Shown piece by piece: positions 38,583 to 53,008 of a stretch of 64,000 nucleotides of DNA (position 1 is the first letter of the stretch; each line of letters opens with the position of its first letter). Source of the stretch: Vicinamibacterales bacterium (GTDB lineage Bacteria; Acidobacteriota; Vicinamibacteria; Vicinamibacterales; UBA8438); the NCBI GenBank assembly GCA_965249175.1, contig OZ252227.1, positions 6,128,043-6,192,042 on the forward strand. The letters are read 5' to 3'. The notes under the pieces were generated by a model. That model worked only from the letters and a program-made list of their open reading frames with translations, was not told the DNA's origin and ran no database searches. The position numbers were made by a program, and so were the translations under genes.

Positions 38583-39272
38583 TCACGCGGTCACATCCGC
38601 CGCCGCGACGATCTTGTTTCGACCCGACTGCTTGGCCTCCAGGAGTGCGCGGTTCGCCGCGGCGACCAGCTCGAGCTCTTCCCAGTTGGAATCGACCGCC
38701 GGTGTCGCGCTGGCGACGCCGACGCTGACCGTCAGCCGCTTCGCGGTCGGGGAGTCCGGATGCTCGATGTCGAGCCCGTCGACCGCCGCGCAGACCTTGT
38801 GGGCGACGCGGTAGGCGCCCTGCTCGTCGGTCCGCGAGAGGACCAGCGCAAACTCCTCACCGCCGTATCGGGCGACGATATCGCCAGGTCGGCGGACCAC
38901 ACCCTTGAGCGCCCCACCGACCTTGGCAAGGGCGGAATCGCCGGCCTGATGTCCAAGGCGGTCGTTGTAGTCGCTGAAGTGATCGAGGTCGATCATGATG
39001 ACCGAGAGAGACGAGGTTTCCCGCAAGGCGCGTCGCCACTCGTTGCGGAGAAACTCCTGGAAATGACTGTGGTTGGTCACCCGGGTCAACGAGTCGATGC
39101 CGGCGAGCCGGTGGAGCGTCTGGGTCGCCTCCTCCAGCTCGGTCGCGCGATGTTCGAGTTGTTTTTGGAGCGCCTTGACCGTCGCCGCGTGCGACTTCTC
39201 TCGCGCGAAGTGATACACGCCGATCCCCGCCAGCGCCAGGATGACGAGCCCGATCGCGACGAGGGCTTCCAT
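38583..39272 (-). CDS. Diguanylate cyclase (GGDEF) with a single N-terminal TM and coiled coil
   Basis: From ATG 39272 (MEALVAIGLVILALAGIGVY). RxxD I-site RPGD, then RYGGEEFALVL. The rest of ORF 38583..40052 is antisense to thrB. Confidence 0.88.
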   Translation of the reverse strand: MEALVAIGLVILALAGIGVYHFAREKSHAATVKALQKQLEHRATELEEATQTLHRLAGIDSLTRVTNHSHFQEFLRNEWRRALRETSSLSVIMIDLDHFSDYNDRLGHQAGDSALAKVGGALKGVVRRPGDIVARYGGEEFALVLSRTDEQGAYRVAHKVCAAVDGLDIEHPDSPTAKRLTVSVGVASATPAVDSNWEELELVAAANRALLEAKQSGRNKIVAAADVTA

Positions 39273-39501
39273 GCATGCAAATTCTCGCACACCGGTGCCC
39301 CACTGGCCAGCACGCGGCCGCTTCTCGGCCGATCGCAACACCGCGTGCTTGTCGTTGCAGCGAAAGGAGATAGCGCACGAGCCGTGTTCCTCGTGGGGCG
39401 GCGGGGCGGCGCAACAAACCGGGCAGATCTGTGCACGCCCGTCGACCATCGATCGCAACCGTGCGACGCTGTGACGCCCACCTCCGTGATACTCATGGAC
39501 C

Positions 39502-40440
39502 ATGCCTGCGCGTGTCCGTGTGTTCGCCCCGGCCACGGCCTCCAACCTCGGCCCGGGATTCGACGTGCTCGGTCTGGCACTGACCAGGCCGGGTGACGTG
39601 GTGGAGGCCGAGCGACGTTCGCAGCCCGGTGTGGAGATTGCCGAGGTGACCGGTGCATCCTCGTTGAGCACGGATCCGGCGACCAACGTCGTCGGTATCG
39701 CCGCGACCGCGGCGCTTGAACGACTTGGACTCCCGGACGCGGGAGTCCGCCTTCGGTTGCACAAGCAGATGCCGCTGGGCAGTGGTCTGGGGAGCTCGGC
39801 GGCCAGCAGCGTGGGCGGCGCCGTGGCGGTCAATGCGCTGTTTGGCGAGAAGCTGTCCGCGCCCGCGCTCGTCGAATGTGCGTTACGCGGCGAGGCGGCC
39901 GTCTCCGGCACTGCCCACGCCGATAACGTCGCGCCGGGAGTGCTCGGCGGCATCGTCCTGATCCGCGCAGTTGACCCGCTGGACCTCGTCGCGCTCCCCG
40001 TGCCGGCCGATTTGCGCGTCGTGGTCGTGCACCCGCACAGCGAGGTGCTCACAGCGGACGCGCGGCGACGGATCGCCGATCATCGGTTCACGATCGGGCA
40101 GACCGTGGCCAACCTGGGCAACCTCGCCGCGCTCGTCAGCGCGCTATACCGAGGCGACCTCCCGTTGCTCGGGCGCAGCATCTCCGATGCGCTCGTCGAA
40201 CCGATTCGCGCCCCGCTCGTGCCGGGATTCCACCAGGTGCAGGATGCTGCGCGTGATGCTGGCGCGCTCGGCTGCTCGATCTCCGGCTCCGGGCCGAGCG
40301 TGTTTGCCTTCACCGACGGGGACGACGCGGCGGCGGCGGCGGCGGACGCCATGCAGGCCGCGTTCAGGGAGGCGGGTCTCGAAAGCGAAAGCTACGTCGG
40401 GCCGGTCGAGGCACGCGGTGCCCGTGTGGTGTCATCTTAG
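39502..40440 (+). CDS. thrB: Homoserine kinase
   Basis: VFAPATASNLGPGFDVLG and PLGSGLGSSAAS GHMP-kinase motifs; 312 aa. Confidence 0.9.
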   Translation: MPARVRVFAPATASNLGPGFDVLGLALTRPGDVVEAERRSQPGVEIAEVTGASSLSTDPATNVVGIAATAALERLGLPDAGVRLRLHKQMPLGSGLGSSAASSVGGAVAVNALFGEKLSAPALVECALRGEAAVSGTAHADNVAPGVLGGIVLIRAVDPLDLVALPVPADLRVVVVHPHSEVLTADARRRIADHRFTIGQTVANLGNLAALVSALYRGDLPLLGRSISDALVEPIRAPLVPGFHQVQDAARDAGALGCSISGSGPSVFAFTDGDDAAAAAADAMQAAFREAGLESESYVGPVEARGARVVSS

Positions 40441-41266: not shown

Positions 41267-43036
41267 CTAAGGATGCTCCTGCCAGCCGGTGAGGATGTGA
41301 AGTGCCTCGACGCGCGCGGCGGGCTCCAGCATCACGAATCGCGAGCCGTCGAGATCCACGTCATACGCGGGGAGGACGGCGCTGGCATCAGTGACGAACG
41401 GACCGTCGAACAGGTGCCGGGGCTGGCTGAAGTATGGCGGGCTCTCGCGCACGGTGACGGCGTGCAGCGCGCGACCGCGCCGATAGAACAGCTCCGTGCC
41501 GTCCCGACTCCACACCGGCTCACTCCCGCCGTTCGGTGACACGCGGTGGGGGCTGTCGTCGCGTGTGGTGTCCGTCCCACGCACGTACACCTGGTCGCCG
41601 TCCGCATCCTCATCCTCACCGTCCGACACGTAGGCCAGCCAGAGACCGGATGGGCCAAACGCCGGCGCCCGTTCGTTGGCGTCGGTCGCGAGGAGCACCG
41701 CCGGCGCCGCCCCGTCGCCTTCTGTCCAGGTCCAGATGTCGCGGCCCCGTGCCGGATGGGTCTCGTGAAACGCGAGCGTGCGGCCACCGCGTGACCACGA
41801 TCCAGGCGTGCGTGCATCTCCCGCGACGAGCATCTCCGGCGCGCCCCCGCCGTCCGTACGCTGACGAAAGATGCGCTGCGGTCCGTGGCGGCTCGACGCA
41901 AAACTCACCGTCGCGCCGTCCGCCGACCAGACAGGAGAGTGGTTGTCGCCGGCCTGCGCGGTGAGCTGCTGGCGCGAGCCCGTGGCAACGTCGAAGGACC
42001 AGATATCGCGGCGGAGGAACTCGGCCCGAATCGAGACCGCGATGCGGGCGCCGTCTGGCGAGATCCGGGGCGTCGCGTGTGGCGCAGTGACGGCATCGGC
42101 TCGCGTCGCTACGCCGTGGCGGTCCACCCACACGAGCCGATTGTCCGCGGCCGGCTCGAACAGCGGTGTGAAGACGAGCGTGCCACCGCGGGCGGCGGCG
42201 AGACCCGACCGGCCGAGCCCGCCGTAGCCGGCCGCGTTGCTTGCGGCTCCATGCACGACGGGACGCGGCGACCGCGCGGATGCAGGATCCCTCGGGTCGA
42301 GGGTGGTCGTAAAGACTTCACCGCGACGGGTGAAGACCAGGCGCCCCGACTCGAGATAGTGCCCGCCGCCATCGGCGAGCGAGAGCGGGTGCTGCTCGCC
42401 GCTCTCGAGGTCAAGCAGCGTCAGTCTGGGGTCGCGGCCTTCGCGGCCGACGGTGAAGATCGCGTGGCGCGCGTCCACGTAGTGTGGCCAACCGTGCGCC
42501 GTCTCTCCCGCGTCGCGATCCGGTTTCGTGACCGGCACCGGGACGCCCCCGGACGCGGCGACCCGATACAGGCCGGTCGCGGGCGGGCCGGCGAAGAGAA
42601 TGTTGCCCGTTGGTCCCCACGACCCGCCGGCGCTGTGGCCAGGCACGCGGCAGACCGTGACCGGAGCGGTCGCTGCGCTGGTTGTGTCCAACGTGACTGT
42701 CTTGAGGAATCCCCCGGCGAAGAACCCGATCGCGGCGCCGTCGGGCGCGAAGAACGGTTGCGTCGCTCCGTCCGTGCCCGGCAGTGTCAGCGTGTCGAAC
42801 CGATCGAGCGGTCGTACGAACAGCCCCGCGCGTCCGTCCACCACCGCGGTATACGCCAGCCGGTTCCCGTCGGGAGACACCGCCACGTCGAGCGCGGCGT
42901 GGCCGTGGGGGAGGTCGATCGAGAGCGCGCGCGTCGGCACGGAGACGGGCGGCGCCGGTGTTCGCACGACGAGTGTGGCGATCGCGCCGCCACTTGCTGC
43001 GGCGACCAGCGCGACCAGCACCACTCGCACGCGCAT
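41267..43036 (-). CDS. Secreted PD40/TolB-like beta-propeller repeat protein
   Basis: Signal MRVRVVLVALVAAASGGAIA. Repeated SPDG..LAY / WS.DG...F motifs. Confidence 0.8.
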   Translation of the reverse strand: MRVRVVLVALVAAASGGAIATLVVRTPAPPVSVPTRALSIDLPHGHAALDVAVSPDGNRLAYTAVVDGRAGLFVRPLDRFDTLTLPGTDGATQPFFAPDGAAIGFFAGGFLKTVTLDTTSAATAPVTVCRVPGHSAGGSWGPTGNILFAGPPATGLYRVAASGGVPVPVTKPDRDAGETAHGWPHYVDARHAIFTVGREGRDPRLTLLDLESGEQHPLSLADGGGHYLESGRLVFTRRGEVFTTTLDPRDPASARSPRPVVHGAASNAAGYGGLGRSGLAAARGGTLVFTPLFEPAADNRLVWVDRHGVATRADAVTAPHATPRISPDGARIAVSIRAEFLRRDIWSFDVATGSRQQLTAQAGDNHSPVWSADGATVSFASSRHGPQRIFRQRTDGGGAPEMLVAGDARTPGSWSRGGRTLAFHETHPARGRDIWTWTEGDGAAPAVLLATDANERAPAFGPSGLWLAYVSDGEDEDADGDQVYVRGTDTTRDDSPHRVSPNGGSEPVWSRDGTELFYRRGRALHAVTVRESPPYFSQPRHLFDGPFVTDASAVLPAYDVDLDGSRFVMLEPAARVEALHILTGWQEHP

Positions 43037-44116
43037 TTATCTGACGGGGCTTCGCCCCGAACCCCCGCGGGCGCTCCGCGGGGACCCCGAGAGCCCCACT
43101 CCGCGCCCGCGCGGCGCGCCGTGCGCGCCGTCCCCCGCCGAATATCGCTCGTGTGCGCGACCGAGCTCGGTCGCGATCCGACTGACCAGCGACGTCGGCG
43201 AGCGCACGAGCACGGCTGGCCCGTAGCTCAGGATCCAGCTGCGCAGCGCGCCGTCGTCGCAGACGTCGAGCGTCATCAGGACGGACCCGTCCGCTCCGGC
43301 GGTCAGGGTCTGCGAGGGGTGCCACACGCGTTCCTGCACGTACGGCGCGACCTCCGCCGCGAACTCGAGCTCGATGTGCTCCGGGTCGCCCTGATGGATC
43401 CCGAGTGAGTGCGGGAACGCGGCATCGGTGAGGTCTTCGATCGGCAGAAACGTCTCGCTGAGCGGCGTGAGCTCCCGGATGCGCTCGACGGCAAACGTCC
43501 GGACCTGCCGGTACTGCGCCACATAGGCGAACAAGTAGAGACCCCCTTGTGCGTACACCAGACGATAGGGATCAAGCCGATACCGCTTCTCACGGCGGCT
43601 CGAGAGCGAATGGTAGCGTGCGTCGACCCGTCGCTGGTGCAGGATAGCGTCGAGCAGCCGGCCGATCGTCGCGCGCTGCCGCCCCTCGTCGCGCGCCCGC
43701 ATCGGTTCGCGCTTTGCCTGGATCACCTCGGGCAGGCGATCGAGGAACTGCCGCGTGCGCGGCCCGAGCGCCGTCTCGAGCTTGTGAAACGCGCTTCGCA
43801 CATCCTGCGCAAACGGAGTCGCCGCAAGACACTCGACGAGCGTGCGGCTGAAGTACAGCGCGGACAGCTCGGCCAGCGTGAACCCGGTCTCGTCCAGGCG
43901 CCGAAACGGTCGCGCCTCGAGCTTCCAGACCTTCGCGCCTTCGCCAGGCTCGTCGTACAGCGGGAACCCCGCATCCTGCAGCGCGTCGAGGTCCCGCCGG
44001 ATCGTGCGGGTGGTCACGCCGGTCGCCGCCGACAGGTGCCGGATCGTGGTGCCATGGGAGGACTCAATCTCGCGCAGGATGCTCCACTGTCTGATCACCT
44101 CGGCGTTACGCGGCAT
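43037..44116 (-). CDS. HTH-WYL-WCX transcriptional regulator (PafB/PafC-like)
   Basis: From ATG 44116 (MPRNAEVIRQWSILREIE). HTH TIRHLSAATGVTTRTIRRDLDAL. WYL domain YRLDPYRLVYAQGGLYLFAY. WCX-like C-terminus. The last ~30 codons are encoded by repeat copy C. Confidence 0.85.
   Translation of the reverse strand: MPRNAEVIRQWSILREIESSHGTTIRHLSAATGVTTRTIRRDLDALQDAGFPLYDEPGEGAKVWKLEARPFRRLDETGFTLAELSALYFSRTLVECLAATPFAQDVRSAFHKLETALGPRTRQFLDRLPEVIQAKREPMRARDEGRQRATIGRLLDAILHQRRVDARYHSLSSRREKRYRLDPYRLVYAQGGLYLFAYVAQYRQVRTFAVERIRELTPLSETFLPIEDLTDAAFPHSLGIHQGDPEHIELEFAAEVAPYVQERVWHPSQTLTAGADGSVLMTLDVCDDGALRSWILSYGPAVLVRSPTSLVSRIATELGRAHERYSAGDGAHGAPRGRGVGLSGSPRSARGGSGRSPVR
43043..43129 (+). repeat. 87-bp structured repeat, copy C
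   Basis: Near-identical to copy A over ~85 nt. It lies between the PD40 gene start and the WYL gene body and forms the WYL ORF 3' end. Confidence 0.8.
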
Positions 44117-44172
44117 GGCGGTGGTGGAACCCCGAACAGGGTATACCCGTCCCAACAGTAGAGGGTCCGCGA

Positions 44173-44199
44173 CGGGTGTGACCTACCCTGTCACACCCG
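44173..44199. promoter_or_regulatory. Perfect 10-bp inverted repeat (candidate WYL-regulator operator)
   Basis: CGGGTGTGAC-N7-GTCACACCCG. A second palindrome, GGGTATACCC, lies at 44139-44148. Confidence 0.45.
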
Positions 44200-44210
44200 G
44201 GGCTTAGGGT
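44189..44210 (+). promoter_or_regulatory. PafBC/RecA-NDp-like promoter (TGTCR-N11-TAnnnT)
   Basis: TGTCACAC (44189-44196), 8 nt, TAGGGT (44205-44210). The ATG at 44216 is 6 nt downstream of the -10 element, implying a leaderless transcript. Confidence 0.45.
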
Positions 44211-44215
44211 GAGTC

Positions 44216-44653
44216 ATGGCTCAATACCAGGACGCAACGGCTCGACAGTTGGGGTTCCCCTACGACGATCCAGATTCACGGCAGCGCCCGGAGGCGGCGC
44301 CCGGTGCACCGTCGCGGTCCCGCCCCGGACCGCGCCGGTTGTGCGCCGTGTGCGGTCGTGTCCCCGCGCAACTGACGCTCGATCTGGCCCGCAGGCGTCT
44401 GCCGGCTCGGGTGTGCCTCAGATGCCACCACTCGGTGATGCGGCAGCGACGCATGCTCCGCGCGACGCTCGGTGGCCCTGGCGATGACAGGAACACCGGA
44501 CCCGTGTGCGGTGAGGGCGTCGGTGCGACCGGCCTCATCGTCCCGCGCCAAAGCGGCCTCAGCGGCGACCGCAAATACCGACGACTGGCCCAGTCGCGGC
44601 GTCGCGCCCAAAAGGCGGCCCGCCACGCCCTCGAGGATCCCGTGTTGCCCTAG
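44216..44653 (+). CDS. Small basic hypothetical protein with CxxC...CxxC zinc-ribbon-like motif
   Basis: 145 aa. LCAVCGRV...VCLRCHH. The only sizeable sense ORF between the promoter and addB. No family recognised. Confidence 0.4.
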   Translation: MAQYQDATARQLGFPYDDPDSRQRPEAAPGAPSRSRPGPRRLCAVCGRVPAQLTLDLARRRLPARVCLRCHHSVMRQRRMLRATLGGPGDDRNTGPVCGEGVGATGLIVPRQSGLSGDRKYRRLAQSRRRAQKAARHALEDPVLP

Positions 44654-44780
44654 CTGCAAGACCCAGCAGTGAACTCTGGGTTTAGTCTGGTCGGCGATCG
44701 ATCGCCCCGTGCTACGATTCGGATGACTGGCGGCGTGGCGCCGCCGGAACGGAGACCCCGGCACGGAGGCTTCGGGGAGC

Positions 44781-47700
44781 GTGGCACTCGAGAATCCACC
44801 AGCGACCGATCCATCCCCGCCCGTAACCTCGGTCGCGATCCTTTCTGCTCCCGACGCCTCGACCCGTCTGGACGCCGCGCGAGCCTTCCTCGAGCCACAC
44901 GCGGCGGGGCACGAGCTGCTGCTCGTCGGCGAGACGCGTGAAGCGGCCGACGATCTCGCGCACGAGATCGCGGGACGTCTCGGGGCGACCTTCGGACTTC
45001 ATCGATTCAGCGTGCGGCAGCTTGCGGCCCGGATCGCAGCCGTTGATCTTGCTCGGGCCGGGTCCGCGCCGGCCACCCCGCTCGGGGTGGAGGCGGTCGC
45101 GACGCGCGCCGCGTTCGAAGAGATCGAGCGTGACGCACTCGACTATCTTCGTCCGATCGCGCGCCTCCGCACGTTTGGGCGTACGCTCGCCGCGACGCTC
45201 CGCGACCTTCGGCACGCCGAGGTGCCGGTGGCGCAGGTGAGCCGTCTCGAGTCAGTTGGACGTGACCTCGGTGTGCTGGCCGCGGGTTACGCACAGCAGC
45301 TCGACCAGGCTCGGCTCGTCGATGCGCCGATGCTGTATCGGGTGGCTGCGGCCGCCGCGGCGCGCGGGGTCGCCCGACCTCCACTCGGTGTCCCCACGGT
45401 GCTCCTCGACGTGGCGGTCGCTGACGACGCGACGCTGGCGCTGATCGCATCGGTCGCGGCCCGTGCCCCGCGGGTCCTGGCCACCGTGCCGTCTGGTGAC
45501 GACCGCACGCTGGCCGCGCTCCGGCGCCTACCGGGTGCCACGGACGCCGTGGCCGCAGACGATGGGGCCGCAGACGGCGGCACCACGGGCCGCGCGCTCG
45601 GACGCGTGCGCCGATACCTGTTCACGGCTGACGACCCGCGGGCGATCGACGACGCGAACGCAGCACCTGAAGTCACCTTCCGCTCGGCTCCCGGCGAGGA
45701 ACGGGAGTGCGTCGAGATCGCGCGGACGATGCTGCAGGAGTCGGCACGGGGGGTGAGCTTCGATCGGATGGCTGTGCTGCTCCGGTCGCCGCGCGTCTAC
45801 GGTGGCCTGCTCGAGACGGCGTTGAAACGAGCGGGGATCGACGCCTGGTTCGCGAAAGGTACGCACACACCTGACCCGGCGGGGCGCGCCTTCCTCGCCT
45901 TGCTCGCCTGTGCCGCAGAACGGCTCTCGGCGCGCCGGTTCTCCGAGTACCTGTCGCTCGGCCAGGTGCCTCGGCTCGACGACGACGGCGCGCCCCCGGT
46001 CGACCGCGGACGATGGGTGGCGCCCGATAGCGTCGCCGAGGTGGTGCCGGTGCCCGCGCTCCCCGCGCAGCTCTCGCTGCTGGCTCTGCTCGAAGCCGAG
46101 GACGCCTCGCCCGGTGAGCCGACGGATGCCGATGCCAATGCCGTGGACGGCGACGCGTCGCCCGTCGTGGCCGGCACGCTGCGCGCGCCGTGGCGCTGGG
46201 ATCGCCTCCTCGTCGAGTCCGCGGTGATTGGCGGGCAAGCGCGATGGGCGCGACGGTTGACCGGTCTCGCGCGCGAGCTGGAGTTGAAGCGCGCGGAGCA
46301 TGCGGCGGACGATCCCGACTCCTCGCGCGTGCGCGGAATCGATGACGACCTGCGCAACCTCGAACATCTGCGACGGTTTGCGTTGCCGGTGATCGGTCGG
46401 CTGGCCGCGTTGCCCGCCGAGGCTTCGTGGGGTCAGTGGCTGGATCTCCTCGATGACCTGGCGCCGATGGTGCTCGAGGACCCGGATCGTGTGCTCGCGG
46501 TGCTCGCCGAGCTTCGTCCGATGGCCCGTGTGGGTCCGGTGCCACTGCTGGAGGTGCAGGACGTCCTCGCGGAGCGGCTGACCGAGCTGCAGGCCGAGCC
46601 ACCGCGCCGGCGGTTTGGCCGGGTCTTCGTCGCCGCACCGGAACATGTGCGAGGCCGTCGGTTCACGGTCGTGTTCATTCCGGGTCTTGCCGAGCGCGTC
46701 TTTCCGCAGAAGCTCCGCCAAGACCCGTTGTTGCTCGATGAGCACCGTGCCAGCCTCAACGCCGGCGCGGACGCGGCACGTCTCGGTTTGCCGGATCAGC
46801 ATGACCGCAACGCCCACGAGAAGCTGTTGCTGCGTCTGGCCGTGGGCGCCGCCACCGACCGTGTCCACCTGTCCTACCCGCGTCTCCAAGCTAGCGACGG
46901 GCGCCCACGGGTCCCGTCCTTCTACGCGCTGGACGTCGAGCGCGCCCGCCGTGGGGTCATGCCGAGTTTTCAGGCGGTCGAGGAACGGGCGTTTCTCCAG
47001 GCGGGCGCGCGGCTTGCCTGGCCGGCGCCGGCGGACGCGGCGCTCGCCATCGACGATGCCGAACACGACCTGGCGATCCTCGGTCCACTGTTGCACCGGA
47101 CGGTCACGCCCGAGATCGCCGGTCGTGCTCGATACCTGCTGACTCTGGACCACGGGCTGCGGCGGTCGCTCCTCACGCGATGGGCGCGCTGGAAGCGACC
47201 GTGGTCGAAATACGACGGGCTTTACGACCTCGATGCCGGCACGATCTCTATGCTCGCCGCGCACCGCCTCGACGCGCGTCCGTACTCCGTCTCGTCGCTG
47301 CAACGGTTCGCGACGTGTCCGTACCAGTTCCTGCTCGGCGCGCTGTATCGTCTCCAACCACGCCAGGATGTCGAGCCGCTCGAAAAGCTAGACCCGCTGA
47401 CCCGGGGCCGTATGGTCCACGAAGTGCAGGCCGAGCTCATGCGCGAGCTGAAGCGCCGCGAGGCACTACCGGTGACGGTGGCACGGATCCCCGATGCCGA
47501 AGCGGTGCTCGATGAGGTCCTCGACCGGGTGGCGGCCGCCTACGCGGAACAGCTCGCGCCGGCCATCGATCGGGTGTGGCGGGACGAGATCGAGGCGGTG
47601 CGCGCCGATCTCAAAGGATGGATCCACCACGTAGCGAACGAAGACAGCGAGTGGATCCCCATTCGCGCGGAGTTCGGATTTGGCTTCGCGCCGGGGGGCG

Positions 47701-48209
47701 GCCGGGATCCCGAGAGCGTGCCGGAACCGGTGACCCTCGACGGGCGGTGGCAGTTGCACGGTGTCGTCGATCTCATCGAAGCAAAGGCGGGGCCAACGCC
47801 CCACGGCGAGCTCCGGGTCACCGACCACAAGACCGGGAGGAACCGAACGCGCGAGCGGATGGTGGTTGGACGCGGTGAAGTGCTGCAACCCGTGCTGTAC
47901 GGCTTGTCCGTCGAGCAGGCCATCGGTCGCGTGGTTGGCGAGTCGCAGCTGTTCTTCTGTACCTCGACCGGCGCCTTCGCGCGCCGGTCCGTGTCGCTCG
48001 GCGAGCGCGAGCGCCGATCCGGCATCGAAGTGCTGGAGATCATCGATCGGGCGGTGGCGGGAGGCACGTTCCTGCCGGCGCCACGCGAAGGCGCGTGCCG
48101 ATGGTGTGACTACCGTGAGGTGTGCGGTCCGTGGGAGGAGCGGCGGGCGCGCTACGTAAAGGACGACACCAAGCTCGTCGATCTCTTCGCCCTCCGCGGT
48201 TTGCCATGA
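44781..48209 (+). CDS. addB: AddB-type helicase-nuclease subunit (PD-(D/E)XK nuclease with Fe-S cysteines)
   Basis: GTG start with GGGGAG upstream. C-terminal nuclease with FATCPYQF ... DLIE ... DHKTG ... [11 protein letters not shown], the four-Cys iron-staple pattern. Confidence 0.8.
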
Positions 48210-51200
48210 CAATGACACGGCGTCCGACACCGCTAGTCGATGCCGAGGCCCGCGATCGCATCCGCACCGCGCTCGACGACTCGCTCATCGTCGAAGCCGC
48301 GGCCGGGACCGGCAAGACCAGTGAGCTCGTCGCGCGCATCGTCAACGTGCTCGCGTCAGGCACCGCGCGGGTCGACGAGATCCTCGCCGTCACGTTCACC
48401 GAGAAAGCGGCCGGCGAGCTGAAGCTCCGGTTGCGTGAGGAGCTCGAGCGCGCACGTCAGACGCCGGATGGCATCGGTGGGGGCGGTGGCGCCGACGGGC
48501 ATCTGGAAACGCGCTCGCGTCAGCTGGAACACGCGATCGCGCATCTCGAGGAAGCCCAGGTCAGCACCATCCACGGGTTTTGCGCCGATCTCCTGCACGA
48601 ACGGCCGGTCGAGGCCGGCGTCGATCCGCGCTTCGGGATCCTGGCGGAGCCCGAGGCGCGCCGGCTCTTTGCCCAGGGATTCGACCTCTGGTTTCAGGAC
48701 GTCCTCGCGGATCCGTCCGAAGGGGTCCGGCGCGCGCTGCGCCGCCGCAAGACGCCGTTCCGCTTTGACGAGCCCGACGCAGCGACCGACAGTCCCACGG
48801 ACAGATTGCGTCGCGCTGCATGGCAGCTTGCCGAATGGCGTGATTTCACTGCTCAGTGGCGCCGCGAGGAGTTCCCGCGCGAGGCGGTGATCGATCAGAT
48901 CGTGGCCCATGTCAAGGAGTTCGCCGATCTCACCGACCAGGCTGGCAATCGAAAATACGATCGCCTCTTCCACGACACGCAGCCCGCGCGATTGGTGGCC
49001 CAAACCATAAAGACGACCGACGCCGTCCGGCCTCGGCGTCGCGACTACGACGGGATCGAGGCGTTGCTCGTCGAGCTTGCGGCCAACCGCACATTCACGA
49101 AACCCCGTCGGGGCGCCGGCGCGGACTATGCCGACGGCGTGGCGCGTTCGCATGTCGTCGAACGGCACACCAAGGTGGTCGAGATGCTGCGGCGGTTCAC
49201 CAAGGTCGCCGACGCGGATCTCGCCGCCCTGCTGCAACAGGAGCTACAGGCGGTCATCGAGCGGTATGGGGCGCTGAAATCCGACGCCGGCTATCTGGAT
49301 TTTGTCGACCTTCTCCTCAAAGCACGCGACCTCCTCACGCGCCATGACAGCGTTCGCCACGCCGCCCAGCAACGGTTCGCACGGGTGTTTGTCGACGAGT
49401 TCCAGGACACCGATCCGCTGCAGGCGGAGATCGTCCTCTTGCTCTCAGCGAACGACCCGGATGAGCGTGAGTGGCGGCGCGTGACCCCGGCGCCGGGCAA
49501 GCTGTTCATCGTCGGGGATCCCAAGCAGTCGATCTACCGGTTTCGCCGGGCTGACGTTGGGATCTATGAAGAGGTCAAGGGGCAGTTGGAGCGCGCCGGT
49601 GTCACCGCGGTCGAGCTCACAACCAGCTTCCGAGCCGTGCCAGCGATCCAGCGGCTGGTCAACGGGTCGTTTGCGCCGGTCATGCGCGCGACCCGTGCCG
49701 GCGGTGGACCGCGCGCGGCGTATGTGCCGCTGTCGCCGCACCGCGATGATGTGGAGACGCAGCCGTCCGTCGTGGCGTTGCCGGTGCCGCGTCCGTATGG
49801 CCACTACCGCGTCGCCGCCAAGGCCATCGACACCTCCGTCCCCCACGCCGTCGGCGCGTTCATCGATTGGTTGGTGCGCCACAGCGGCTGGACCATCACC
49901 CAACGGCGATCGGACGCTGGAGACGATGGCCCGGAGACGGGCCGCGTGCCGATCGAAGCCCGGCATATCTGCGTGCTGTTCCGGCGCTTCGAGAGCTTCG
50001 GCGGCGATGTGACCCGCGCCTACGTCAATGCACTCGAGGCGCGCGGTATCCGCCACCTGCTGGTCGGCGGGCGGACGTTTCATGAACGCGAGGAGGTCTC
50101 GACGGTTCGCGCGGCGCTTGCCGCCGTCGAATGGCCCGACGACGAGCTGTCGGTGTTCGCGACACTGCGTGGGTCGCTCTTCGCGGTCGACGACGAGACC
50201 CTCTTTGTCTATCGCCAACGGTTCGGACGACTCCATCCTTTCCGTGTCGCGAGAGCGTTGACTGGCGACGACGGCGCCGGCGACGACCGATTGCTCCCAG
50301 TGACCGACGCGCTCGAGTTGCTGCAGCGCTTGCATCGCCGTCGCAACCACGTCCCGGTCGCCGAGACGATCGGGCGGCTGCTCGAGGCGACTCGCGCGCA
50401 CGCGGGTTTCGTGATGCGCCCCGCGGGCGAGCAGGCGCTGGCCAACGTGCTCCAGATCGCGGAGATGGCCCGGCGTTACGAGGCCGGCGGCGGACTCTCG
50501 TTCCGCGGCTTCGTCGAGTATCTCCGGGACGAGGCGGCCGCGAGGCAGGCTGGTGAGGCGCCGATCCTCGAGGAGGGGAGCGACGGCGTGCGGATCATGA
50601 CCGTGCACCGCGCGAAGGGACTCGAGTTCCCGGTTGTGGTGCTGGCGGACCCGACGTGCAAGCTTCATCGCATGACCGCCAGCCGCTTCGTCGACGCGGA
50701 GAGCGGGTTGTGCGCGTTGCAGCTGGCGGGGTGGTCGCCGCTCGATCTGCTGGACCACGAGCCTCAGGAAGTCGACCGTGACAGGGAGGAAGGCATCCGC
50801 CTGGCGTATGTCGCCGCGACACGCGCGCGCGACCTGCTGGTTGTGCCCGCGGTCGGGGATGGGCCGCACGAGGGTGGGTGGCTGAGCCCACTGCACCCGG
50901 GGCTCTACCCACCGACGGCGACGCGCCGCGCGCCCGAGCTCGCCCCGGGGTGTCCGCGATTCGGTCTCGATTCGGTGCTCGAGCGGCCGGATGGGGATCC
51001 AGCCGGCAACGAGACGGTCGCACCTGGCTTGCACACGATGGCCACATCCGCATCGGCGGATGGACAGGGCGCGAGCGTGGAGCGCGGCAAGATCGTGCCG
51101 TTCCCCGGCACGACGCCCGCGCCCTCCAGTGCCGAGGCTTTCGCTGAAACCTACGGCGTCGTGTGGTGGGATCCCGCGCAGCTGACGCTCGACGTCGATG

Positions 51201-51889
51201 CCCGGTTCGGGATCCGGCAGGAGGAGCTGCTCTCGAAGAACACGCCGCCCGAGGTCGTCGAGGAGGACCTGCAGCGCTACCGCGGGTGGCGGCGTCGCCG
51301 CGATGAAGCGATCGCGCGCGGGGCGCGGGCGAGCCTCGTCGTCGAGACGGCGACCGAGCGTGCGCGGGCCGCAATCGGCGGCCGCGACGCGTCTCCGCCG
51401 GTCGAGATCATCGAGCTTCCGATCGATTCGGCGCGACCGACTGGCGCGCGGTTCGGCTCGGTGGTGCATGCGGTCCTGGCAAGCGCGCCGCTGGATCTGC
51501 CCGCGGCGTCCGCACCGCTCGACGAGTTGGCGATGCTCCATGGGCGCATCCTCGGGGCGCCGGCGGGCGAGATGGCCGCGGCGTCAGCAATTGCGCGCGC
51601 GACACTCGACCACCCGCTGCTGGCGCGCGCGCGCGCCGCCGCCACACGGGGCGACTGCCGGCGCGAGGCGCCGGTCACGATGCGAGGCGACGACGGCACG
51701 CTGGTGGAAGGGATCATCGATCTCGCGTTTCGTGAATCCGCCGGCTGGACGGTCGTCGACTACAAGACCGATGCAGAGCTGGCCGGAACCGACGCCCTCG
51801 AGATCTACCGGCAGCAGGTGGCGCTGTATGCAGCGATGATCGCCCGGGCCACGGGAGAAACCGTGACACCCATCCTGATGCGGGTGTGA
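48206..51889 (+). CDS. addA: AddA-type UvrD/Rep helicase with C-terminal PD-(D/E)XK nuclease
   Basis: From ATG 48206 (ATGA overlap with addB). [41 protein letters not shown]-terminal GIIDLAF...VVDYKTD. Confidence 0.88.
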
Positions 51890-51902
51890 CACGAAGGCCC
51901 GC

Positions 51903-52111
51903 GTGAGCCGCCGGCGCTGGTGCGCGTCTGGCAGGAATGCATCAGTGACCCGCCGGCGCTGGTGCGCGTCTGGCAGGAATGCATCAGTGACCCGCCGGCG
52001 CTGGTGCGCGTCTGGCAGGAATGCATCAGTGACCCGCCGGCGCTGGTGCGCGTCTGGCAGGAATGCATCAGTGACCCGCCGGCGCTGGTGCCCGTGTGGC
52101 AGAATGCCTCA
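51903..52111 (+). repeat. Tandem array: 42-bp unit x ~5
   Basis: GTGACCCGCCGGCGCTGGTGCGCGTCTGGCAGGAATGCATCA. Units start at 51903, 51945, 51987, 52029 and 52071. Units 2-4 are identical, unit 1 has 1 mismatch, and unit 5 is 41 nt with several changes. Confidence 0.95.
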
Positions 52112-53008
52112 GTGACCCGGAGGAGCACGAAGCGGACCCGTGCGGACTCGCGGCCACGGCGCGCGCCGGGTCGCGTCGCCCGGCCACGCGCTACAGCTAA
52201 GCGCTGGGCGAGCGTGCCGCTGCTCGCCGCGCTGGCGCTCGCGGCGTTGATCACGAGCGGGTGGGTGCTCCGCTCGTCCCCCATGACGAGCTCTACAGCG
52301 GCCCAACCGGGTGTCGTCGTGCGCTCCCAGCGTGTCCAGGTGCTGCGGACGTTGCCACACGACACCACGGCGTACACCCAGGGACTGCTCTGGTGGGACG
52401 GCGCACTGTACGAAAGCACCGGTCAGGTCGGACGGTCGGAGCTCCGTCGCATCGATCCCGCCACCGGTCGCGCGGTGCAGCGCGTGGACATCTCGCGCGC
52501 CTACTTTGGCGAGGGTCTCGCCCGCGTGGGTGACCGCCTCATCATGCTCACGTGGCAGGCTCAACGCGCGTTGGTCCACGACCTGGCCAGTTTCGACCAG
52601 CTCGCGACATTCCGCTACCAGGGTGAGGGATGGGGCCTGTGCCACGACGGCACGCGCCTGATCATGAGCGACGGAACCGACGTGCTTACCTTCCGGGACC
52701 CCGAGTCGTTCAACGCCATCGGCCAGGTGCGCGTCACCTTGCGCGGTCGCCCGCTCATGCAGCTGAACGAGCTCGAATGCGTCCGCGGCGAGGTATTCGC
52801 CAACGTGTGGCAGGAAGACTACCTGGTGCGGATCGATCCGTCGAGCGGACGCGTCACCCACCAGATCGACGCGGCCGGTCTGCTGAGGCGGTCCGAATCA
52901 CTCGGTGTGGATGTGCTCAATGGCATCGCGTACGACCCCGACGCCGACACGTTCTACATCACGGGCAAGTGGTGGCCCAAGATGTTCGAAGTGCGGTTCG
53001 TGGAGTAG
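52112..53008 (+). CDS. Glutaminyl-peptide cyclotransferase (beta-propeller type), membrane-anchored or secreted
   Basis: TTAYTQGLLWWDGALYESTGQVGRSELRRID..., LNGIAYDPDADTFYITGKWWPKMFEV. TM/signal RWASVPLLAALALAALITSGWVL. The start is uncertain: GTG 52112, or upstream GTG 51920, which would include the repeats. Confidence 0.8.
   Translation: MTRRSTKRTRADSRPRRAPGRVARPRATAKRWASVPLLAALALAALITSGWVLRSSPMTSSTAAQPGVVVRSQRVQVLRTLPHDTTAYTQGLLWWDGALYESTGQVGRSELRRIDPATGRAVQRVDISRAYFGEGLARVGDRLIMLTWQAQRALVHDLASFDQLATFRYQGEGWGLCHDGTRLIMSDGTDVLTFRDPESFNAIGQVRVTLRGRPLMQLNELECVRGEVFANVWQEDYLVRIDPSSGRVTHQIDAAGLLRRSESLGVDVLNGIAYDPDADTFYITGKWWPKMFEVRFVE

Follow-up and report, generated by a model that had tools for sequence, protein, structure and literature searches.

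A DriD-like WYL regulator and a conserved palindromic promoter box in Vicinamibacterales: a candidate DNA-damage-responsive unit headed by a small zinc-ribbon gene

Introduction

Transcription regulators with a WYL domain direct SOS-independent responses to DNA damage; the cases studied in detail are PafBC in Actinobacteria, DriD in Alphaproteobacteria and DdaA in Moraxellaceae. Does a unit of the same kind exist in another phylum? The question is raised by a 64,000-nucleotide (nt) stretch of contig OZ252227.1 from a Vicinamibacterales bacterium (the window; positions are counted from its first letter). An initial annotation of this sequence had described a PafBC-like WYL regulator gene, divergent from a mycobacterial-type DNA-damage promoter said to drive a small open reading frame (ORF) and an addB-addA pair; it had judged the host to be non-actinobacterial and had offered a BrxR/CapW-style switch as an alternative. 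When the sequence was re-read, every feature so described was found where it had been placed, and the taxon labels of loci carrying orthologues of the regulator agree on a host in Vicinamibacterales, Acidobacteriota.

The evidence presented below favours, with reasonable confidence, a reading in which the regulator is an activator of the DriD/PafBC class acting on a promoter box, the whole forming a damage-responsive unit with the small ORF as its first target and with read-through into addB-addA.

Results

A palindromic box is conserved at a fixed distance from a -10 hexamer

The regulator gene and the small ORF diverge from a short spacer that holds the candidate promoter, with the following features:

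43037-44116, minus strand: HTH-WYL-WCX regulator gene, presumably DriD-class; ATG at 44116; 359 residues, with a conserved core of about 325
44117-44215: intergenic spacer of 99 base pairs (bp) between the WYL gene and the small ORF
44173-44199: perfect inverted repeat CGGGTGTGAC-N7-GTCACACCCG with 10-bp arms
44176-44196, plus strand: WYL box GTGTGAC-N7-GTCACAC, at about -41 to -21 of the predicted small-ORF promoter
44189-44210, plus strand: right half-site plus hexamer, TGTCACAC-N8-TAGGGT
44205-44210, plus strand: predicted -10 hexamer TAGGGT (TAnnnT), 8 nt 3' of the right half-site GTCACAC
44216-44653, plus strand: small ORF of 145 codons, ATG at 44216, predicted to be leaderless; zinc ribbon and basic helix

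The inverted repeat is more than a chance occurrence. With three mismatches allowed it has a single match in the window against 0.05 expected, and the 64 kb contain only four inverted repeats whose arms measure 10 bp and whose spacers are 0-20 long. The half-site pattern TGTCR-N11-TAnnnT taken alone is not significant by itself (1 found, 0.74 expected) and gains significance only through its conservation across loci. A genome scan for orthologues of the regulator yielded 80 loci, nearly all labelled Vicinamibacterales/Acidobacteriota, whose regulators are 55-97% identical to that of the window; exactly one match to TGAYY-N4-YTGTCA-N11-TAnnnT was found in 78 of them. The resulting site model is gGTGACC-N4-CTGTCAC-N10-TAnnnT, and the box has a GC-rich centre (CTnCCCT).

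A weight matrix derived from the 78 sites free of ambiguous bases (consensus gGTGACCTnCCCTGTCACaCc-N7-TAnacTg) scores the true sites at 22-51 bits, and nothing else above 12 bits was found in the 1.39 Mb around the regulator genes, nor in shuffled sequence; at that threshold neither the window nor any of the 80 loci has a second box. When the -10 requirement was dropped, 83 core palindromes were recovered, and 79 of these are followed by TAnnnT at one single offset. The site points away from the WYL gene in 78 of 79 cases, the window included, and lies within 250 nt of the WYL start in 44 of the 79, the others being up to 5 kb away.

The layout agrees with the PafBC promoter motif to which the initial annotation had likened it: TGTCAC-N10-TAGGGT has exactly the spacing of the motif determined for PafBC in vivo, tGTCgg(N10)tA(N3)T (PMC8635444). 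There is no -35 element at a usable distance and no TG extension of the hexamer, and a sigma-70 scan returned no canonical promoter between 43000 and 52500. Independent support for TAnnnT as the -10 element, and for leaderless mRNAs, comes from the start codons: among 176 dereplicated sites, 20 have a codon opening an ORF 6-7 nt past the hexamer where 3.7 would be expected, an enrichment of about fivefold. In the window the ATG of the small ORF follows TAGGGT after 5 nt. Since the N-terminus encoded from this ATG aligns with homologues that have leaders and Shine-Dalgarno sites, 44216 is taken as the true start.

Two further sequences were considered as binding sites and set aside. The palindrome GGGTATACCC (44139-44148), earlier singled out as a second palindrome of the control region, is present as described; as a second operator it was rejected, since perfect palindromes of 10 bp number 150 in the window and this one is not kept in the closest relatives (L001 and L002), and it is regarded as a chance feature outside the system. 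Likewise, TGACTGGCCTTGTCAAC at 63052-63068 matches the core of the box only, lacks a -10 at the fixed offset and was taken as chance.

The same box also adjoins WYL genes of other lineages that are 27-42% identical to the regulator, and it sometimes stands directly upstream of them. This distribution indicates that the box is used by a wider clade of WYL regulators.

The regulator is closest to the single-gene activator DriD

Pfam assigns the regulator an HTH_11 domain (residues 10-60), a WYL domain (151-217) and a WCX domain (245-321), the order that had been read from its sequence, and a protein search retrieved thousands of close relatives. The WYL protein encoded on the complete Vicinamibacterales chromosome OZ240205.1 is 96% identical to it. 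In a profile search of the PDB, DriD ranked first (E-value 2e-15, a continuous match over residues 19-322), followed by PafBC/PafC (3e-13, confined to the WYL-WCX part) and BrxR (1e-4); CapW was missing among the matches at E <= 0.01. Foldseek, run with a low-confidence model of the regulator, gave the same ranking (DriD 4e-16, PafBC 6e-13, BrxR/CapW 5e-8).

The regulator was also compared with DriD (PDB: 8TP8, 9PFV) at the level of single residues. In DriD, both guanines of GTC are recognised by R37 and R41 and the outer base by E40 (PMC10853764). The aligned R37 and R41 of the regulator are invariant in 13 orthologues, and R40 replaces the base-contacting E40, a change that parallels the G to A substitution at the outer base of the box. 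Among ten DriD contacts to single-stranded DNA (ssDNA), six are kept or conservatively replaced (Y168, S172, K177, Y194, R206, F208) and four are not kept (R189, R207, Y240, R288). The WYL motif region reads GGLYLFA (LYL), without the RWHVR signature of the CapW/BrxR repressors. An AlphaFold2 (AF2) model places helices at residues 81-133, between the HTH and WYL domains, with low confidence.

The HTH_PafC model scores 17.6 bits, below its cut-off of 32, and no paralogous partner WYL gene adjoins the regulator; it is therefore not a PafBC orthologue. The earlier assignment to PafBC holds at the level of the PafBC/DriD class. Within that class, the single gene, the 7-N7-7 palindrome, the divergent small target and the top PDB match all bring it nearer to homodimeric DriD than to heterodimeric PafBC. 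It is presumably a DriD-class, single-gene WYL activator working as a homodimer.

The stretch from the box to the WYL start contains a conserved TCAATAATA or TCAATCATA, at 44150-44165 of the window and in the equivalent region of L001-L031. Read on the WYL strand, this element is TATTAT or TATGAT (TACTGT at 44155-44160 in the window) and resembles a -10 hexamer belonging to the regulator gene itself. It stands 6 to more than 40 nt from the box, and activation of the WYL gene from the box is therefore improbable. The same has been reported for DriD, which activates a divergent operon starting with the small protein CCNA_03891 and leaves driD itself unchanged (PMC13004042).

Directly after the WYL stop codon at 43037 begins the next same-strand gene:

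41267-43036, minus strand: PD40 beta-propeller gene, 589 residues

L083 and L084 have the same WYL/PD40 pairing, with a 1-nt overlap. The regulator and this gene probably share a transcript.

The conserved target of the box is a gene for a small protein

Wherever it could be read, the first gene past the box belongs to one small-protein family, here called 'RRRRAQ'. The member in the window combines an N-terminal 'ATARQLxF' motif with a CxxC...CxxCHH zinc ribbon and, at the C-terminus, the basic helix 'RRRAQKAARHAL'. The zinc ribbon proposed from the sequence is borne out by four invariant cysteines (CxxC...CxxC) and by an AF2 model in which the ribbon and the C-terminal helix reach a predicted local distance difference test (pLDDT) score of about 88-90, the remainder being disordered. 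A short form of about 70 residues (M-x-R-F-D-G-S-x-A-x-K-L-D-F-G ... G-L-R-L-A ... G-P-D-K-Y-R-V-L-E-x-R-R-R-x-A-Q-I-x-A-R) has 167 representatives at 50% identity; in the clade of the window these N- and C-terminal motifs flank an inserted CxxC...CxxCHH ribbon.

Every homologue carries the annotation 'hypothetical'. The protein of the window has no match in Pfam, NCBIfam or PADLOC and no significant fold match in the PDB by Foldseek; one homologue gives a weak, sub-threshold match to DUF7685. By its constant position behind the box, the small ORF, rather than addB-addA, is the conserved target.

Further small genes accompany it. In L003-L020, except L006, a second small zinc-ribbon ORF ('LCRRCGKREAL...HHDLCFQCRRALRDA') lies between the small ORF and addB, and in more distant loci the short 'RRRRAQ' protein is followed by a small ORF with 'C.HG.G.ALCFECF.AG...HRRRMLEHL'. 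In Caulobacter, the five printed codons of CCNA_03891 (MTRFA; PMC13004042) resemble the MTRFDGS/MTRFEGS start of the short form. Neither a word-indexed nor an exhaustive profile search returned a sequence starting MTRFA.

A wider suggestion, which we put forward tentatively and hold to be rather doubtful, is that the 'RRRRAQ' protein is an unrecognised conserved effector of WYL damage responses. It would be co-inherited with the regulator and the box across phyla, possibly including CCNA_03891, and its arginine-rich helix and N-terminal QLDF-like motif would suggest that it acts on nucleic acid or the replisome. Separately from this, the suggestion has addB-addA under a second, hitherto unreported layer of control, the structured leader described below being found only on addB.

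addB-addA carry a promoter-like element and a structured leader of their own

Downstream of the small ORF the plus strand continues with these features:

44693-44706: perfect 14-bp palindrome GGCGATCGATCGCC, just 5' of the addB -10; possible operator
44710-44718, plus strand: extended -10-like TGcTACGAT, candidate promoter of addB-addA's own
44727-44777, plus strand: addB 5' leader, consisting of hairpin P1, then the conserved ACGGAGA, then a possible hairpin P2
44781-48209, plus strand: addB-like gene, GTG start; PD-(D/E)XK nuclease subunit with Fe-S cysteines and no Walker A
48206-51889, plus strand: addA-like gene, UvrD-type helicase-nuclease, in ATGA overlap with addB at 48206-48209

Pfam identifies PDDEXK_1 in AddB (4.9e-29) and UvrD-helicase, UvrD_C and PDDEXK_1 in AddA, confirming the domains of the overlapping helicase-nuclease pair that had been recognised in the sequence. 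The nuclease motif is DHKT in AddB, which also has the cysteine motif, and DYKT in AddA, whose Walker A is GTGKT. AddB matches addB_Gpos weakly. For AddA, matches to the NCBIfam models addA_alphas, addA_Gpos and recB have E-values of 2.7e-71 to 5.3e-66, none of them attaining its equivalog cut-off; scores so far below these cut-offs mark the pair as a divergent AddAB lineage. In Actinobacteria, adnAB, the analogous pair, belongs to the PafBC regulon.

The linkage of the pair to the small ORF is confined to the clade of the window. Only in L001-L020, L023, L025, L030 and L052 does addB-addA directly follow the small ORF. A single operon from the small ORF to addB was rejected for the distant loci, where an extracytoplasmic function sigma/anti-sigma pair, LTXXQ proteins and a hydrolase intervene and the linkage is loose.

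The gap between the small ORF and addB is 128 nt in the window and holds a conserved element. At the 5' end of the leader, TGnTAnnnT or TAnnnT is present in 15 of 16 full-length matches, including loci in which addB lies kilobases from the small ORF. Hairpin P1 pairs 44727-44735 with 44739-44747 and shows compensatory changes in five of eight pairs, with 97% of cells paired; none of 500 shuffles equalled it, and slid controls scored far lower. The possible hairpin P2, seen by inspection only, would pair CCCCG (44756-44760) with CGGGG (44773-44777) and abut the addB GTG start; RNAalifold did not recover it, two subgroups aligning one base out of register. A covariance model (R1) built from 13 loci matches only upstream of addB, at 17 loci, some of them with addB far from the small ORF. 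The element corresponds to 44693-44780 in the window and was located in L001, L002, L006, L021, L023, L025, L030, L034, L042, L049, L053, L058, L059, L067, L070 and L073. No Rfam family was found over 42500-52500 at E up to 1.

On this comparative evidence, addB-addA very probably have a promoter and leader of their own, and the view that the box promoter drives addB-addA gives way to one of read-through at most. Such read-through is possible, since no terminator is predicted or conserved between the small ORF and addB. A candidate terminator, ACCCAG...CTGGGT at 44661-44681, is absent from L001, has a fold z-score of -1.4 and was dropped as unsupported. The palindrome GGCGATCGATCGCC, which may be an operator, is present in L001, similar in L021 (AGCGATTGATCGCT) and absent in L002. 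L003-L020, except L006, lack the leader and have the second zinc-ribbon ORF in its place; addB-addA may depend more on the box there.

The flanking genes are ordinary neighbours: addA is followed after 31 nt, in the same orientation, by a glutamine cyclotransferase gene (51920-53008), and a gene for a GGDEF diguanylate cyclase lies upstream (38583-40052). The synteny of the locus is stable across order-level divergence, with regulators 55-97% identical and housekeeping genes around it, a pattern that makes a mobile island unlikely.

The box also precedes genes of recombination and repair elsewhere

In a scan of metagenome contigs for the exact box pattern, the downstream genes among the matches listed include at least six ssb genes and at least two each of rmuC (L088, L189), DUF2130 (L158, L163) and DUF222/HNH genes, together with priA, ftsK, DUF5131 and a Dam-type methylase, and many relatives of the small protein from several zinc-ribbon subtypes. 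The rmuC genes among these matches are leaderless from the box promoter. NCBI Vicinamibacterales proteins share 90%-identity clusters with RmuC from L088 and with the DUF2130 protein from L158. The ssb clusters and the clusters of the other small-protein subtypes carry no organism names. One DUF222 protein behind the same pattern, among the matches listed, groups with Acidimicrobiia, in keeping with the PafBC regulon of Actinobacteria.

Repair-type genes behind the box (rmuC, DUF2130 and ssb) are what a DNA-damage regulon would be expected to contain. The gene set supports the view that the box marks a small regulon for DNA damage and recombination, of which the present locus would be the regulator-proximal member. 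Taken with the stable chromosomal synteny, it argues for such a regulon over a defence-island switch.

Other associations of the box were noted in the same contigs. In low-GC contigs a variant, TGACCGKATCTGTCACA-N-TAnnnT, lies 20-30 nt 5' of IS1595-like zinc-ribbon transposase genes (L089, L105, L149, L172, L179) or at contig ends (L096, L106, L109, L119, L123, L130, L139, L150, L152, L156, L181, L185, L198). Many of these contigs break 46-50 nt past the box, and L181 carries it at both ends, facing outward. The transposase genes may be controlled from a WYL-type promoter; alternatively, the motif may belong to the ends of the element. Also recurring behind the box are ARPP-1 domain proteins (L087, L129, L191), a protein of 57-61 residues with the motif 'YEVDEQYQELLEYHGNT' (L093, L131) and vWA-domain proteins (L113, L127).

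Discussion

A proposed mechanism and its alternatives

In the mechanism that we propose, DNA damage and resection would generate ssDNA, which would bind the WYL/WCX pocket of the regulator, a signal suggested by analogy with DriD, PafBC, DdaA and CapW. The paired winged helix-turn-helix domains of the homodimer would then engage GTGTGAC-N7-GTCACAC at about -41 to -21. Fixed at 8 nt from the -10 hexamer TAGGGT, the box would replace a -35 element, and RNA polymerase with the housekeeping sigma factor would be recruited or adapted to a -10-only promoter starting at about 44216. The resulting mRNA would be leaderless and encode the small 'RRRRAQ' protein with its zinc ribbon, perhaps continuing into addB-addA.

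Several points weigh against this proposal. Binding of the box by the regulator, induction by damage and the transcription start are predictions from sequence; activation rather than repression, the ssDNA signal, read-through into addB-addA and independence of LexA are likewise predicted. Sequence similarity alone cannot tell WYL activators from WYL repressors. Three DriD contacts to ssDNA are changed in the regulator (R207 to A, Y240 to H and R288 to G), and the AF2 model (pLDDT 63, predicted template modelling score 0.34) supports a DriD-like three-helix bundle weakly. The agreement with three printed DriD promoters (PMC13004042), in which the half-site is likewise followed by N8-cAnnnT, depends on a -10 assigned in the present analysis and not taken from the authors' figure. 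The metagenome scan yielded at least 120 sites, with chance matches among them, and the contigs with ssb, priA and ftsK carry no taxon assignment. As for addB-addA, addB is 3-7 kb off in the more distant loci, behind unrelated genes, and, given the pair's own promoter-like element and leader, its dependence on the WYL promoter may be small or nil.

The nearest alternative is that the WYL protein represses: the palindrome would be an operator of the CapW/BrxR kind lying over the promoter, and binding of ssDNA would derepress the small ORF. CapW and BrxR share the order winged HTH-WYL-WCX and bind, as homodimers, palindromes some 20 bp long within the promoter of an adjacent operon, from which ssDNA releases CapW (PMC11662680). 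The box at about -41 to -21 is well placed for a bound protein to block RNA polymerase, and PADLOC WYL models match the regulator at 4e-31. However, a promoter without a -35 element and a TG extension should be weak unaided, and the invariant distance from box to -10, a precision that an operator does not need, equals that of the activator-dependent PafBC and DriD promoters. The regulator has LYL where RWHVR marks the repressors, keeps the key arginines of DriD and is far more distant from BrxR/CapW than from DriD in both the profile and the Foldseek comparison. Repression is thus unlikely, and a BrxR/CapW-style switch, as entertained in the initial annotation, is disfavoured. A variant of that idea makes the locus an anti-phage module, with a WYL switch over an AddAB-like nuclease-helicase effector and a small accessory protein, comparable to BrxR in bacteriophage exclusion (BREX) and CapW in cyclic oligonucleotide-based antiphage signalling (CBASS). 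WYL regulators do often stand beside defence systems (PMC9122601), DdaA in Moraxellaceae controls damage and defence genes alike, and PADLOC reports generic similarity of the helicase to GajB and of the nuclease to Cas4 and DruK. These matches reflect generic UvrD and PD-(D/E)XK domains, however, and no whole system was recognised by PADLOC; AddA is best matched by AddA and RecB equivalog models, the synteny is kept among housekeeping neighbours at 55-97% regulator identity, and the same box precedes rmuC, DUF2130 and ssb among the matches listed. We give this variant very little credence.

It is equally improbable that another factor binds the palindrome and the WYL gene is merely co-located. 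The zinc ribbon and arginine-rich helix of the small protein could bind nucleic acid, and its gene always adjoins the box, so that autoregulation would be conceivable. Yet the half-site retains the GTC triplet read by R37 and R41 of DriD and by R46 and R50 of PafB, and the corresponding arginines are invariant in the regulator. The 7-N7-7 geometry is common to the DriD and DdaA boxes, the box is found beside the more distant WYL genes of other lineages, and among the matches listed it stands before rmuC, DUF2130 and ssb where the small gene is absent. Activation by a DriD/PafBC-class regulator, with the small ORF as first target, is the reading carried forward below.

Implications

The locus indicates that the WYL logic known from the three groups named at the outset also operates in Acidobacteriota, an abundant soil phylum that is genetically hard to study; a literature search found no published account of a WYL-controlled damage response in this phylum. 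The architectures of PafBC and DriD promoters have been published as 'distinct'. Since the box is a DriD-type palindrome whose proximal half and -10 have the PafBC spacing, the two may have arisen from one ancestral layout. In practical terms, the site model allows the regulon to be predicted in any Vicinamibacterales genome, and two uncharacterised parts are flagged: the small first-target protein and the structured addB leader.

Comparison with known WYL systems

BrxR and CapW resemble the present system in their winged HTH-WYL-WCX order, in a palindrome beside the regulated operon and, for CapW, in ssDNA sensing. They differ in much weaker similarity, in RWHVR instead of LYL, in the lack of a long helical linker region and in being repressors of mobile defence systems (BREX, CBASS).

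DdaA is compared by its published description: it is a homodimeric WYL activator with GAC-N7-GTC geometry (box CGWCA-N5-TGWCG) and a regulon that includes ssb and genes of recombination and repair, recA and uvrA among them (PMC12392091, PMC13010146). It differs in the outer bases of its box, which are DriD-like, in also controlling CRISPR-Cas and restriction-modification systems, and in having sites as far as about 160 bp upstream of a target gene.

At promoters without a -35, PafBC is placed between sigma region 4 and a '-26 element' and replaces the -35 contact, and PafB reads the GTC triplet through R46 and R50 (PMC8635444); its signal is ssDNA (PMC11804915). The proximal half-site and -10 of the present promoter (TGTCAC-N10-TAnnnT) share its spacing, its GTC core and the missing -35. 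In contrast to the single gene found here, PafBC is a PafB plus PafC heterodimer or a fusion, usually in a pup-proteasome neighbourhood. It recognises a non-palindromic half-site, bound only together with RNA polymerase, where a full palindrome is present here, and it controls about 150 genes, whereas no second site was found in the 1.39 Mb around the regulator genes.

The closest counterpart is DriD of Caulobacter, whose homodimer binds ATACGAC-N7-GTCGTAT in the position of a -35 element, with constant spacing to the -10 (PMC13004042). The differences are an identity of 22-23% to the regulator, the outer half-site bases (CGAC/GTCG in DriD, TGAC/GTCA here), an AT-rich box centre in DriD as against the GC-rich CTnCCCT, the targets (didA, bapE, recJ and dnaG as against the zinc-ribbon 'RRRRAQ' protein, rmuC and DUF2130) and the phylum, here Acidobacteriota. 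Against these stand the likenesses: a single regulator gene with DriD as its top match in sequence and fold over nearly the full length; half-sites of 7 bp across a 7-bp gap with a GAC...GTC core, and the R37 and R41 that read it; and a box at the -35 place, at a fixed distance from the -10, with the regulator gene divergent from an operon led by a small protein.

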